A stretch of DNA of 64,000 nt, taken from NCBI RefSeq assembly GCF_044324785.1, contig NZ_CP172127.1; one strand, written 5' to 3'. This stretch comes from Escherichia coli (GTDB lineage: Bacteria > Pseudomonadota > Gammaproteobacteria > Enterobacterales > Enterobacteriaceae). The position numbers were made by a program, and so were the translations under genes. Positions within the stretch are counted from its first letter, which is position 1. Each line of letters starts with the position of its first letter. Shown here piece by piece: positions 1,980-36,405 of the stretch. Under the pieces are notes generated by a model. That model did no database searches. It was not told the DNA's origin and saw nothing but the letters and a program-made list of their open reading frames with translations.

Positions 1980-3353
1980 TTAATGGTTGGAGAACCAGTT
2001 CAGTTTATCGCGCAGGCCAACAACCCGACCAATAATAATTAGCGATGGACTGTTCATTTGCTGCGCTAGTTCGCCCAGCTGTGTGAGCGTACCGTCAATC
2101 ACGCGCTGCGTGACTGCTGTTCCGTTTTCGACAATTGCCACCGGCATTTCGCCAGGCATACCGTGTTCAATCAGCTTTTGCTGAATGGTCGCGGCCTGAT
2201 TCAGCCCCATATAGAACACCAGCGTCTGTTTTTCTGCCGCCAGGTTTTCCCAGTCCAGCTCGCCACCGGTTTTTAAGTGTCCGGTAATTAAGCGTACGCT
2301 CTGGGCATAATCGCGATGCGTGAGCGGAATACCCGAATAGGCAGAGCAACCAGAAGCTGCGGTAATACCCGGAACCACCGAGAACGGAATACCCGCGTTG
2401 CACAGTGTTTCCAGCTCTTCGCCACCACGGCCAAAAATAAACGGATCGCCACCTTTCAGCCGCACCACGCGTTTGCCTTTTTGCGCTTCCCGCAGCAGGA
2501 TCTGGTTTATCTCTTCCTGCGGTACGCAGTGGTATCCCGCGCGTTTGCCGACGAAAACGCGATCAGCATCGCGGCGTACCAGATTCATAATATCGTCAGA
2601 AACTAGACGGTCGTAGACCACCACATCTGCCTGCTGAATTTGTTGCAGACCTTTCAGTGTCAGCAGCCCGGCATCGCCCGGACCTGCGCCAACCAGCACC
2701 ACTTCACCGCGATGGTCGAGCGGTTCGTTGATTAACTGTTCGGTCGTTTCAGTAATGGCTTTCTGATCGTTGTTTGCCAGCGACTGCGCCAGACGGTCAT
2801 TAACGAACAGTTTTTCCCAGAAACGGCGACGTTCACCCATTGTTGCGAACTGTTGTTTCACTCGACCGCGTAATTGCCCGGCGTATTTCGCTACCTGGCC
2901 CAGATGCAACGGCAGCAGTGATTCAAGTTTTTCACGCAACAGGCGTGCCAGAACCGGAGAGGTGCCGCCAGAGGAGACCGCGACCATGAGCGGTGAGCGG
3001 TCAATAATCGACGGCATAATAAAGCTGGCGGCTTTCGGCGCATCGACCACGTTACAGAAGATGCGACGAGCTTCAGCGGCTTCACTGACGCGCTGGTTAA
3101 GCGCGTCATCATCCGTCGCAGCAATCGCCAGCCAGCAGGTGTCGAGAAGGCTTTCATCAAATGGCCCTTCGACGAGGGTTAACATGCCTGCATCTGCCCA
3201 TGCGGTGAACTGCGGAATAAACGCTAATGCATTCACCGTTAAGCGAGCGCCTGCGTCTAACAGTAACCTTGCTTTGCGTTCCGCGACATCACCACCGCCG
3301 ACAATCAGACAGTCGCGATCGCGTAATTGGCAAAATATAGGCAAATGATCCAC
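1980..3353 (-). CDS. cysG: siroheme synthase (uroporphyrinogen-III methyltransferase / precorrin-2 dehydrogenase / ferrochelatase)
   Basis: 457 aa ORF, N-term [31 protein letters not shown]; length and sequence match CysG. Confidence 0.95.
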
Positions 3354-31230: not shown

Positions 31231-32472
<1,242 letters not shown>

Positions 32473-32496
32473 TTACACGTTAATTAGTTTCGAATT

Positions 32497-32523
32497 AAAA
32501 AGGGCGCTTCGGCGCCCTTTTTG
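32497..32523 (+). terminator. str operon (tufA) intrinsic terminator
   Basis: agggcgc-ttcg-gcgccct stem-loop followed by ttttt. Confidence 0.85.
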
Positions 32524-32569
32524 CATTTGTTGACTGCATTTCTTATTCGTACTGTCAGAACGAATAAAT

Positions 32570-32617
32570 TATTCATATTTAAAATATCAATTCAATTTAA
32601 TATTTTAAATATGAATA
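32570..32617. repeat. perfect 18 bp inverted repeat with 12 bp spacer in the chiA upstream region
   Basis: tattcatatttaaaatat (32570-32587) and its exact reverse complement atattttaaatatgaata (32600-32617). Confidence 0.9.
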
Positions 32618-32763
32618 TTTCTGTTTTTAAAATGCTTCATTTGTCAGGCTTTTTTCTTATTTTTAATGCCGCACTTTAATTCATATTGAAGGGTTCTCGT
32701 AAAACGTAAATAATTCCTGCGTAGGACTTTTGTTTTGCAGTTTTTACGTCACAAGGGATTATA

Positions 32764-35466
32764 ATGAAATTAAATATATTTACTAAATCTATGATTGGTA
32801 TGGGGCTGGTGTGTTCCGCTCTGCCAGCATTGGCAATGGAAGCATGGAATAACCAACAAGGTGGTAATAAATATCAGGTTATTTTCGATGGCAAAATTTA
32901 TGAAAATGCCTGGTGGGTTTCTTCTACAAATTGCCCGGGAAAAGCAAAAGCAAATGATGCAACTAACCCATGGCGTTTAAAGCGTACCGCGACAGCTGCT
33001 GAAATTAGTCAGTTTGGCAATACACTTTCCTGCGAAAAGAGCGGCAGCTCATCTTCTTCAAATTCAAATACGCCTGCATCCAATACGCCGGCTAATGGCG
33101 GTTCGGCTACACCAGCACAGGGCACTGTTCCGTCTAATTCTTCTGTAGTTGCCTGGAATAAACAGCAGGGCGGTCAGACCTGGTATGTCGTCTTTAATGG
33201 TGCGGTATATAAAAATGCCTGGTGGGTAGCCTCTTCTAACTGCCCGGGTGATGCGAAAGGCAATGATGCCAGCAACCCATGGCGTTATGTTCGTGCCGCT
33301 ACGGCAACGGAAATCTCAGAAACCAGTAATCCACAGTCCTGTACTTCAGCACCACAGCCTGCGCCGGATGTGAAACCGGCACCGGACGTTAAACCGGCTC
33401 CTGATGTTCAGCCAGCCCCAGCTGATAAGTCAAACGACAACTATGCTGTCGTAGCCTGGAAAGGTCAGGAAGGTTCTTCTACATGGTACGTTATCTACAA
33501 CGGCAGCATTTATAAGAACGCCTGGTGGGTAGGCGCGGCAAATTGCCCAGGCGATGCGAAAGAAAACGATGCCAGCAACCCATGGCGTTATGTTCGCGCG
33601 GCAACGGCAACAGAAATCAGCCTGTATGGTAATCCGGGTTCCTGTTCCGTTAAGCCGGATAATAATAGCGGTGCTGTGACTCCGGTTGATCCAACTCCGG
33701 AAACACCGGTAACTCCAGTTACTCCAACTCCGGATAATAACGAGCCATCAACACCAGCGGATAGCAGTAACGATTACTCACTGCAGGCGTGGAGTGGCCA
33801 GGAAGGTAGCGAAATTTACCATGTTATCTTCAATGGTAATGTTTATCAGAATGCCTGGTGGGTTGGTTCTGAAGATTGCCCACGTGGCACTAGTGCAGAA
33901 AACTCCAATAACCCATGGCGTCTCGTGCGTACAGCTACCGCTGCGGAAATGAGTCAGTACGGTAACCCGACTACCTGTGAAATTGATAATGGCGGCGTCA
34001 TTGTTGCGGATGGTTTCCAGGCCAGCAAAGCGTACAGCGCGAACAGCATCGTAGATTATAACGATGCACATTATAAAACCTCTGTCGATCAAGACGCATG
34101 GGGCTTTGTCCCGGGCGGCGATAACCCGTGGAAGAAATACGAACCGGCGAAAGCATGGTCCGCTTCCACCGTGTACGTGAAAGGTGATCGCGTTGTTGTT
34201 GATGGGCAGGCTTATGAAGCGCTGTTCTGGACGCAAAGCGACAACCCTGCTCTGGTTGCGAACCAAAACGCCACCGGTAGCAATAGCCGCCCGTGGAAGC
34301 CGTTAGGTAAGGCTCAGAGCTATAGCAACGAAGAGCTGAATAATGCGCCGCAGTTTAATCCAGAAACGCTTTATGCCAGCGATACGCTGATTCGCTTTAA
34401 CGGTGCGAACTACATTTCTCAGAGTAAAGTGCAGAAAGTTTCTCCTTCTGACAGCAACCCGTGGCGTGTTTTTGTTGACTGGACCGGAACCAAAGAACGT
34501 GTAGGTACGCCGAAGAAAGCGTGGCCGAAACACGTTTATGCACCGTATGTTGACTTTACGCTGAATACGATCCCGGATCTGGCTGCGCTGGCTAAGAATC
34601 ATAACGTCAACCACTTCACGCTGGCGTTTGTGGTGAGTAAAGATGCGAACACCTGTCTGCCGACATGGGGTACCGCTTACGGTATGCAGAATTACGCTCA
34701 GTACAGCAAAATCAAAGCTCTGCGTGAGGCTGGCGGCGATGTGATGCTGTCTATCGGTGGTGCTAACAACGCTCCGCTGGCTGCTTCCTGTAAGAACGTA
34801 GACGATCTGATGCAGCATTATTATGACATCGTTGATAACCTGAACCTCAGAGTCCTGGACTTCGATATCGAAGGCACCTGGGTTGCGGATCAGGCATCTA
34901 TTGAACGCCGTAACCTTGCTGTGAAGAAAGTGCAGGATAAATGGAAGTCAGAAGGCAAAGATATTGCTATCTGGTACACCTTGCCAATTCTACCGACTGG
35001 CCTGACGCCGGAAGGGATGAATGTCCTGAGCGATGCCAAAGCGAAAGGTGTTGAGCTGGCGGGTGTGAACGTGATGACAATGGACTACGGTAATGCGATT
35101 TGTCAGTCTGCAAATACCGAAGGCCAGAACATTCACGGTAAGTGTGCAACGTCTGCGATTGCCAACCTGCATTCACAATTGAAAGGCCTCCATCCCAACA
35201 AGAGCGATGCAGAAATTGACGCTATGATGGGTACCACGCCGATGGTTGGCGTGAACGACGTTCAGGGCGAGGTGTTCTATCTCTCTGATGCTCGTCTGGT
35301 CATGCAGGATGCGCAGAAGCGTAATCTCGGTATGGTTGGTATCTGGTCAATCGCGCGCGACCTGCCGGGCGGCACTAACCTGTCTCCGGAATTCCACGGC
35401 CTGACTAAAGAACAGGCACCGAAGTACGCATTTAGCGAAATCTTCGCGCCGTTTACTAAGCAATAA
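32764..35466 (+). CDS. chiA: periplasmic/secreted endochitinase (multi-domain, GH18-type catalytic domain)
   Basis: 900 aa ORF: signal peptide, four about 70-aa repeats, two CBM5/12-like motifs, C-terminal catalytic domain (DFDIEG). Confidence 0.93.
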   Translation: MKLNIFTKSMIGMGLVCSALPALAMEAWNNQQGGNKYQVIFDGKIYENAWWVSSTNCPGKAKANDATNPWRLKRTATAAEISQFGNTLSCEKSGSSSSSNSNTPASNTPANGGSATPAQGTVPSNSSVVAWNKQQGGQTWYVVFNGAVYKNAWWVASSNCPGDAKGNDASNPWRYVRAATATEISETSNPQSCTSAPQPAPDVKPAPDVKPAPDVQPAPADKSNDNYAVVAWKGQEGSSTWYVIYNGSIYKNAWWVGAANCPGDAKENDASNPWRYVRAATATEISLYGNPGSCSVKPDNNSGAVTPVDPTPETPVTPVTPTPDNNEPSTPADSSNDYSLQAWSGQEGSEIYHVIFNGNVYQNAWWVGSEDCPRGTSAENSNNPWRLVRTATAAEMSQYGNPTTCEIDNGGVIVADGFQASKAYSANSIVDYNDAHYKTSVDQDAWGFVPGGDNPWKKYEPAKAWSASTVYVKGDRVVVDGQAYEALFWTQSDNPALVANQNATGSNSRPWKPLGKAQSYSNEELNNAPQFNPETLYASDTLIRFNGANYISQSKVQKVSPSDSNPWRVFVDWTGTKERVGTPKKAWPKHVYAPYVDFTLNTIPDLAALAKNHNVNHFTLAFVVSKDANTCLPTWGTAYGMQNYAQYSKIKALREAGGDVMLSIGGANNAPLAASCKNVDDLMQHYYDIVDNLNLRVLDFDIEGTWVADQASIERRNLAVKKVQDKWKSEGKDIAIWYTLPILPTGLTPEGMNVLSDAKAKGVELAGVNVMTMDYGNAICQSANTEGQNIHGKCATSAIANLHSQLKGLHPNKSDAEIDAMMGTTPMVGVNDVQGEVFYLSDARLVMQDAQKRNLGMVGIWSIARDLPGGTNLSPEFHGLTKEQAPKYAFSEIFAPFTKQ
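32836..33996 (+). repeat. four tandem about 70-aa domain repeats within chiA separated by Ser/Pro/Thr-rich linkers
   Basis: Repeats of the form AWN.QQGG..Y.V.FNG.VY.NAWWV....CPGDAK.NDASNPWR.VR.ATA.E.S...NP..C; linker at 33358-33420 encodes PAPDVK-PAPDVK-PAPDVQ. Confidence 0.85.
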
Positions 35467-35473
35467 ATGTGTT

Positions 35474-35506
35474 GGCGATACCTTCCGGTATCGCCGCATT
35501 TTTTGT
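35474..35506 (+). terminator. chiA intrinsic terminator
   Basis: ggcgatacc-ttcc-ggtatcgcc stem-loop followed by gcattttttg. Confidence 0.8.
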
Positions 35507-35634
35507 CAATGGGCTACTTTTGGTAGCCCATTATTTTTATTCATATTTCTATTCTTTGCTTAAAAAAGAGTCTTTCCGTAATTGAAATAAGAACTATTTT
35601 CATTTATTTTTGAAGAAAGTATACGGGAGTCTCT

Positions 35635-35829
35635 ATGTACGTTTGTCTTTGTAATGGTATCAGCGATAAAAAAATTCGTCAGGCTGTGCGCCAGTTTTCC
35701 CCCCACTCGTTCCAGCAATTAAAAAAATTTATTCCGGTCGGCAATCAGTGCGGTAAATGTGTCCGGGCCGCGCGTGAAGTGATGGAGGATGAATTAATGC
35801 AGTTGCCGGAGTTTAAGGAGTCCGCATAA
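35635..35829 (+). CDS. bfd: bacterioferritin-associated ferredoxin
   Basis: 64 aa ORF MYVCLCNGISDKKIRQAV...CGKC, [2Fe-2S] cysteine pattern. Confidence 0.95.
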   Translation: MYVCLCNGISDKKIRQAVRQFSPHSFQQLKKFIPVGNQCGKCVRAAREVMEDELMQLPEFKESA

Positions 35830-35900
35830 ACGGAGTGTGTTTTTTGACTTACTCGTAAGCCGTTCTACGCTTCAAAGAGTGGAAGCGAAGGAGTCAAAAA

Positions 35901-36377
35901 ATGAAAGGTGATACTAAAGTTATAAATTATCTCAACAAACTGTTGGGAAATGAGCTTGTCGCAATCAATCAGTACTTTCTCCATGCCCGGATGTTTAAAA
36001 ACTGGGGTCTCAAACGTCTCAATGATGTGGAGTATCATGAATCCATTGATGAGATGAAACACGCCGATCGTTATATTGAGCGCATTCTTTTTCTGGAAGG
36101 TCTTCCAAACTTACAGGACCTGGGCAAACTGAACATTGGTGAAGATGTTGAGGAAATGCTGCGTTCTGATCTGGCTCTTGAGCTGGATGGCGCGAAGAAT
36201 TTGCGTGAGGCAATTGGTTATGCCGATAGCGTTCATGATTACGTCAGCCGCGATATGATGATAGAAATTTTGCGTGATGAAGAAGGCCATATCGACTGGC
36301 TGGAAACGGAACTTGATCTGATTCAGAAGATGGGCCTGCAAAATTATCTGCAAGCACAGATCCGCGAAGAAAGTTGA
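35901..36377 (+). CDS. bfr: bacterioferritin
   Basis: 158 aa [39 protein letters not shown]. Confidence 0.97.
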
Positions 36378-36384
36378 GCCGTGT

Positions 36385-36405
36385 CGGGAGGGAGAACCCT
36401 CCCGG
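36385..36405. terminator. hairpin between convergent bfr and gspO
   Basis: cgggaggg-agaac-ccctcccg stem-loop abutting the gspO stop; no clear T-run. Confidence 0.4.

Follow-up and report, generated by a model that had tools for sequence, protein, structure and literature searches.

The spacer between tufA and chiA in E. coli carries a 48-bp unit in which two 18-nt arms, each the exact reverse complement of the other, flank a 12-bp spacer. It lies at positions 32570-32617 of the 64,000-nt stretch of E. coli DNA that was analysed, referred to below as the window. With somewhat more confidence than doubt, we regard this unit as a lineage-specific, AT-rich quasipalindrome of E. coli and Shigella that may have been made and kept symmetric by template switching, within the H-NS/StpA-silenced control region of chiA. 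Pairing of the arms during replication, either on one strand or across the fork, would let the polymerase change template. One arm would then be copied from its partner (arm homogenisation), and now and then the spacer or the entire unit would be flipped. The strain from which the window comes would represent the 18/18 state after full correction. As the cause, template switching is the best reading of the alleles found in the population. As to function, the unit would merely form part of an AT-rich, TpA-rich tract coated by H-NS/StpA, with no dedicated operator role, and such coating is most likely its sole function.

Locus and geometry of the repeat

The window runs from the end of the str operon (fusA, tufA) through chiA, bfd and bfr to the gsp cluster. 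The features in and around the tufA-chiA spacer are the following:

31288-32472, + strand: tufA (EF-Tu) CDS, which matching E. coli genomes annotate as tuf, with the ORF end at 32472
32496-32523, + strand: tufA intrinsic terminator hairpin from a terminator scan, with a 12-pair stem (6 G-C pairs) and then a T-run
32543-32567, no strand: smaller palindrome TTATTCGTACTG-T-CAGAACGAATAA, 11/12 pairs around one central base
32570-32587, no strand: left arm, TATTCATATTTAAAATAT, invariant in 22 type I alleles
32588-32599, no strand: spacer between the arms, 12 nt, CAATTCAATTTA, found in reverse-complement orientation in the type II haplotype
32600-32617, no strand: right arm, ATATTTTAAATATGAATA, exact reverse complement of the left arm
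32686-32714, + strand: chiA sigma-70 promoter TTGAAG-17-AATAAT, from a promoter scan
32764-35466, + strand: chiA (bifunctional chitinase/lysozyme), 900 aa, with its ATG at 32764

An earlier, sequence-only reading of this DNA had described an 18-bp inverted repeat with a 12-bp gap, just after the tufA terminator and about 150 bp upstream of the chiA start, and this description holds: the sequence is exactly as given there, direct reading pairs the arms at 18 of 18 positions, the terminator hairpin precedes the repeat, and 147 bp separate the end of the repeat from the ATG. When two mismatches are allowed, the symmetry reaches 24-nt arms (32567-32590 and 32597-32620). One of the 18 arm pairs is G-C and the rest are A-T, and the arms are 30 bp apart from centre to centre, or about three helical turns. 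Overlooked at the time was a 6-1-6 palindrome of 13 bp, ATATTTWAAATAT, within each arm (32575-32587 and 32600-32612), and the window contains no third copy. A 12-mer from the outer left arm (TTATTCATATTT, 32569-32580) recurs at 35537-35548, in the AT-rich chiA-bfd spacer just past the chiA terminator, and this recurrence could be due to chance in AT-rich DNA. A 52-aa ORF with a TTG start that spans the repeat (32521-32679) was dismissed, being AT-rich and subject in strain wlxctx60 to a 1-bp deletion that would shift its frame.

The second, smaller palindrome reported just upstream (TTATTCGT-N9-ACGAATAA, 32543-32567) is also present. Perfect 8-nt arms by themselves are frequent in local shuffles, and the type II alleles described below have uncompensated changes in this palindrome at 32552, 32554, 32562 and 32565. 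It shows no sign of maintenance in the type II haplotype.

Departure from chance

No perfect inverted repeat in the window with a spacer of up to 40 nt is longer than the 18-nt repeat, and the runners-up are terminator stems of 14 and 13 nt. When the 239-bp AT-rich spacer was shuffled 5000 times with dinucleotides preserved, perfect repeats were at most 13 nt long, and shuffles of its 81-bp extreme-AT core gave at most 16, with 18 never reached (0/5000). A chance origin was rejected on both grounds, which bears out the earlier statement that such a palindrome is unlikely by chance even in AT-rich DNA; since neither local nor core shuffles reach 18, the repeat is not a by-product of AT richness. 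As single-strand DNA it folds into a hairpin of -12.5 kcal/mol (z = -4.8). This fold, together with the inversion of the whole unit and the co-variation of the arms seen in the population, supports the earlier suggestion that the element is prone to form a cruciform.

The 48-mer occurs at one locus per E. coli genome, and the second-place signal comes from its self-complementarity, one strand of the palindrome matching the other. Within the window, including the gsp cluster, the 18-mer has no second copy at up to three mismatches and the 13-mer none at up to one. Searches of phage and true plasmid records for the 48-mer returned no match, the lone "plasmid" match being a mislabelled 4.9-Mb chromosome. 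A dispersed or mobile repeat (REP, ERIC, MITE, IS) was rejected on account of the single locus and the lack of phage or true plasmid copies.

Alleles within E. coli and Shigella

About 3140-3160 of 5426 complete E. coli genomes (~58%) carry chiA and the spacer. An exact match over 32566-32660 was found in 27 of 3160 spacer-bearing genomes, and the perfect 18/18 form is therefore limited to these 27. The query used for this count was 95 bp long and included non-repetitive flank, as the bare 72-bp repeat went unmatched by megablast, presumably through low-complexity masking. Over a spread of 60 rows of matches to the 95-bp query, roughly 15% had one mismatch, 52% two and 27% three. In most strains 16-17 of the 18 positions pair, as the right arm has uncompensated changes. 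Direct inspection of about 25 alleles showed, among others, the following forms:

Window and strain 1190: 18/18 pairs
Nissle, B, FEX669, Shigella dysenteriae, the loci with the 799-aa ChiA variant and six metagenome contigs: G at 32617, 17/18 pairs
K-12 and relatives: C at 32601 and G at 32617, 16/18 pairs
OkiPb01703: K-12-like, with A at 32617
13P477T and MDR_56: two spacer changes, C at 32604 and G at 32617

All arm polymorphisms of the type I haplotype sit in the right arm (32601 T/C, 32604 T/C and 32617 A/G), and a 15-bp core of each arm is retained in every E. coli allele seen. The metagenome scan gave seven E. coli contigs, all with an imperfect type I repeat, and two unrelated matches. 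In 13P477T and MDR_56, the tandem CAATT-CAATT within 32588-32597 reads AAATT-AAATT, the same C>A being present in both copies, apparently as another concerted change. Segregating sites were counted among 22 type I alleles (12 distinct), as follows:

Left arm: 0/18
Right arm: 3/18
Spacer between the arms: 3/12
Flanking spacer DNA: 17/113
Core promoter plus 5' UTR: 1/78

The two arms together are thus polymorphic at 3/36 positions, as against 17/113 for the flanks and 1/78 for the core promoter, and on these counts it is the core promoter, and not the repeat, that is under strong constraint.

The chiA gene itself varies. Many E. coli encode a ChiA of 799 aa and others the 894-900-aa form; the alignment of the former covers 86% of the query, and it looks like a shortened domain-repeat version. 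Truncated forms of 701 aa occur in Shigella, and chiA is frameshifted in wlxctx60. A contig from a metagenome-assembled genome labelled Citrobacter sp. (locus L004, DXKH01000010.1) has a ChiA 99% identical to that of E. coli and a type I repeat, and is probably a mis-binned E. coli fragment. The UniProt entry for Endochitinase 11 of Metarhizium anisopliae, 87% identical to E. coli ChiA, looks like bacterial contamination.

In strains without chiA, such as O157 Sakai, the tufA terminator directly adjoins a divergent bfd, followed by bfr, a short prepilin-peptidase gene and rpsJ, and homology with O157 Sakai ends just past the terminator (~32525), after ...CCCTTTTTGC. Compared with O157 Sakai and locus L003, chiA together with K-12-type bfd/bfr alleles and the gsp cluster forms a presence/absence polymorphism (32524-36400). 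One proposal is that the repeat is left over from a mobile element, or from an integration site, at the left border of this variable chiA-bfd-bfr-gsp segment, and we attach very little probability to it. The repeat does lie 46 bp inward of the divergence point between E. coli with and without chiA, and two independent IS1 insertions have occurred in or beside it. However, it is single-copy in every genome with no phage or true plasmid match, the other end of the segment has no matching repeat apart from the 12-mer shared downstream of chiA, and relatives with the same tufA-chiA synteny are without the repeat, so it is not an insertion scar of chiA. The IS1 junctions are at window position 32564 in KFu022 (L007) and at 32601 in NCTC11023 (L040), in opposite orientations. 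Next to each IS1 is a deletion that took away the chiA promoter along with the initial 250-640 bp of the gene, with sequence resuming at ~33010 and ~33390, which suggests that IS1 targets this AT-rich spot and that these two strains can do without chiA.

An inverted haplotype

About a dozen genomes (GF4-3, LHM10-1, wlxctx60 and relatives) carry a second haplotype, type II, in which the repeat reads CATTCATAATTAAAATAT-CATATTGAATTG-ATATTTTAATTATGAATA and the flanks differ from those of type I at 16 of 191 positions (8.4%). Aligned directly with the common type I 48-mer, the type II unit shows 10/48 differences, six of them in the 12-bp spacer and two more at the outermost bases, while alignment with the reverse complement of type I leaves 4/48 (8.3%), the same level as in the flanks. 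The type I outer pair T...G appears in type II as C...A, and the central TTCAAT as ATTGAA. Because the unit fits better inverted (4/48) than direct (10/48), and the outer pair is the C...A that inversion predicts, the whole unit has been flipped in type II.

The sole arm substitutions between the two types, 32578 T>A and 32609 A>T, fall on pairing partners. They keep the long complementarity between the arms and break the 13-bp palindrome within each arm, and a paired change that spoils the sub-palindromes argues against two independent dimer sites. Both haplotypes hold at least 17 of 18 pairs despite the ~8% divergence of their flanks.

Several traits of template-switch quasipalindromes are therefore found in this one unit: hairpin-capable arms above ~7-10 bp with a short spacer, a whole-unit inversion between related alleles, a change made in both arms (32578/32609), and an A at 32617 that pairs with T 32570, which G does not. 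Judging from the type II outer pair C...A, G at 32617 would be the ancestral state. The perfecting A is present on two flank backgrounds among the ~25 alleles, that of the window and strain 1190 and that of OkiPb01703, which is otherwise identical to K-12; recombination between lineages could mimic such a recurrence. The tally of events is small, with one inversion, one compensated pair and one possibly recurrent correction. Selection for symmetry or pairing would yield the same compensated pair, and the invariant left arm and the 17 or more pairs of both haplotypes could reflect constraint. Counting against the template-switching model is the decay at 32601 (C) in the K-12 group, which remains uncorrected.

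The tufA-chiA spacer in related species

Orthologous loci were collected by a ChiA protein search and contig look-ups, and a ChiA scan of a genome collection gave three loci. Five syntenic tufA-chiA lineages, with ChiA 70-76% identical, were compared: L005/L029/L030 (Superficieibacter), L020/L021, L022 (Citrobacter rodentium), L026 and L027/L028. Most of these loci run on into bfd-bfr and the prepilin-peptidase gene, while C. rodentium has a second GH18 gene after chiA in place of bfd. The syntenic spacers are AT-rich (25-35% GC) and all have the tufA terminator; in a search for inverted repeats of 10 or more matching pairs whose spacer was no longer than 30 nt, none was found in the five besides the terminator and one 11/13 pair elsewhere in L020. 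In L020, the one lineage aligned, the promoter hexamers are kept and the orthologous place has at most a weak proto-palindrome, in an alignment that is ambiguous in that two aligners gap it differently. The use of L020 as an outgroup to polarise substitutions was dropped for that ambiguity.

Chimaeribacter arupi (L006, 2333-2380) encodes a ChiA homologue with 65% identity in a different genomic context. Centred ~145 bp upstream of its start codon is a 17-nt inverted repeat with 14/17 pairs, a 14-nt spacer and 82% AT, similar in geometry to the E. coli repeat and only loosely similar in sequence.

The chiA promoter and the question of an operator

The ATG of chiA in NC_000913 was assumed to be at 3467875, a value that gives the right gene length of 2694 bp and fits the 291-bp spacer. 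The transcription start of chiA, first mapped by Francetic et al. 2000 (as cited in PMC3950696), was confirmed by 5'-RACE at NC_000913 position 3467918 (PMC3950696). Conversion of this K-12 coordinate, the K-12 spacer being collinear with the window, places the start at ~32721, seven bases past the -10 hexamer. A SELEX peak of RNA polymerase-RpoS holoenzyme at 3467930 (PMC5493296) corresponds to window position ~32709 and agrees with the mapped start. The repeat accordingly spans -151 to -104 of the chiA start, with its centre at ~-127.

The chiA gene is repressed by H-NS/StpA and activated by BglJ-RcsB (PMC3950696). With 26-27% GC (0.265 in 32600-32799; 64 G+C in 239 bp), the tufA-chiA spacer that holds the repeat is AT-rich DNA upstream of an H-NS-repressed gene. 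A BglJ-RcsB box at chiA was looked for and none was found; a motif predicted ~150 bp upstream of the start was mutated, and activation was unaffected (PMC3950696). By approximate placement, this motif falls at the position of the left arm.

The sequence-only reading had proposed that the repeat is the operator of a dimeric regulator. In its fullest form, the proposal is that a dimeric or tetrameric transcription factor of chiA binds as a dimer to an arm or to the 13-bp sub-palindrome, and acts from a position at -127, through looping or by either nucleating H-NS or opposing it. The perfect symmetry, with two identical inverted half-sites about three helical turns apart, is what such a factor would need, the left arm is invariant in the type I alleles and the 15-bp arm cores are kept throughout E. 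coli, and chiA answers to H-NS-opposing factors such as BglJ-RcsB, whose site at chiA was never found (PMC3950696). Set against this, the repeat is not conserved in the five syntenic orthologous spacers, and conservation across strains, which had been put forward as a check, is poor for the perfect form (27/3160, or <1% of genomes), the common alleles having uncompensated right-arm changes. No regulon copies occur in the window, the co-regulated gsp cluster included, and the centre at ~-127.5 is outside the usual positions of repressors and activators, distant looping being possible. The paired change of type II breaks the sub-palindromes, and mutation of the predicted motif at ~-150 left activation by BglJ-RcsB as it was. 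Given the rarity of the perfect allele, the uncompensated right-arm changes of most strains, the absence of the repeat from relatives, the lack of a gsp copy and the far position, the operator proposal gains no support, and we consider an operator unlikely; the cruciform-prone alternative offered by the same reading is closer to the evidence. To our knowledge, the repeat bears no convincing resemblance to the ArgR, RcsB, NagC, Fur, FNR, EvgA, IHF or LysR-type consensus sites.

A broader proposal is that of a cis-regulatory device specific to E. coli, which might be the missing chiA target for BglJ-RcsB or a different H-NS antagonist, or else a cruciform that senses supercoiling and adjusts H-NS silencing just past the heavily transcribed tufA. 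Flip and perfection would both be tolerated by such a device, since only symmetry or structure would matter to it, and we hold it to be rather unlikely.

Structural DNA and RNA alternatives

A structural role at the DNA level would make the repeat a supercoil-dependent cruciform, or a high-affinity site for H-NS nucleation or bridging, that sets the strength of chiA silencing. An AT-rich repeat that is perfect or nearly so is able to extrude, this one is within the 26% GC tract of an H-NS/StpA-repressed promoter (PMC3950696), and it lies directly downstream of a very highly transcribed gene, where supercoiling would be expected to fluctuate. H-NS, however, needs no symmetry, and relatives silence or regulate chiA without such a repeat. 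The published high-affinity H-NS motif TCGATAAATT has no match in the repeat at up to two mismatches, and across the window it gives 66 matches against 57.5 expected, with no enrichment. A structural element of this kind is, in our judgement, distinctly unlikely.

The repeat might also act in RNA, as a back-up terminator or insulator that shields silent chiA from the str operon, with tufA read-through transcripts folding the repeat hairpin followed by UUUCUGUUUUU. RNA folding places three successive hairpins after tufA (the terminator, 32543-32567 and 32570-32617), with a total of -50.3 kcal/mol (z = -8.4); the repeat hairpin alone gives -11 to -20 kcal/mol in all alleles, and the T-rich tract 3' of the right arm (TTTCTGTTTTT) is conserved in both haplotypes. 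Stems closed by A-U pairs terminate poorly, and the present stem, with a single G-C pair among its 18, went uncalled in the terminator scan. The tufA terminator is itself strong, the hairpin is absent in syntenic relatives that share the tufA-chiA arrangement, and the outermost pair, a U·G wobble in type I, is a C·A mismatch on the type II + strand. An Rfam scan of 32300-32900 gave sub-threshold matches on the tufA terminator alone (best 23.5 bits, gathering score 57). A back-up terminator is accordingly regarded as highly doubtful.

Implications

If template switching does account for the unit, it would provide a clean natural case of short-repeat template switching in E. coli, polymorphic across thousands of sequenced genomes, with three outcomes (inversion, paired arm substitutions and palindrome-perfecting changes) in one 48-bp unit. 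For readers of genomes there is also a caution: symmetry can be generated and refined by a mutational process, so that even a statistically impossible palindrome in front of a gene is not necessarily an operator. The search for regulatory sites of chiA is narrowed to the conserved region from -35 to +43. The biological interest is modest, since sequences are already known to behave in this way and the genome is well studied.

Comparison with known systems

Symmetric operators of dimeric regulators share with the repeat two identical inverted half-sites. Unlike them, the chiA repeat is unconserved in orthologous promoters, imperfect in most strains, single-copy and promoter-distant, and its 18-bp arms and 12-bp gap are longer than typical half-sites. 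Intrinsic terminators resemble it in that a hairpin precedes a T-rich tract and both come after a highly expressed gene, whereas the chiA stem is A-T except for one G-C pair and a canonical strong terminator is already present 46 bp upstream. The upstream regions silenced by H-NS/StpA (bgl, leuO, yidL and chiA; PMC3950696, citing Francetic et al. 2000) are matched by the 26% GC spacer and by an H-NS/StpA-repressed promoter that is relieved by BglJ-RcsB, although the silenced AT-rich regions of horizontally acquired genes are not normally palindromic, as the chiA repeat is.

Quasipalindrome hotspots are known in the thyA and lacZ genes of E. coli. Template switching at E. coli quasipalindromes has been studied experimentally (PMC7202029), and in yeast it results in arm homogenisation and spacer inversion (PMC8604942). 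Hairpins can arise and persist through it, with changes that look compensatory and with inverted loops (PMC8794818), and it has been proposed to keep perfect inverted repeats perfect in Proteobacteria (PMC5941160). Compared with the known examples, the chiA arms consist almost wholly of A/T and, at 18 bp, are unusually long, decay is left uncorrected in some lineages, and the mechanism is here read from alleles. What the chiA repeat has in common with them is the short spacer, the inversion of the unit, the paired arm changes and the single changes that perfect the palindrome.
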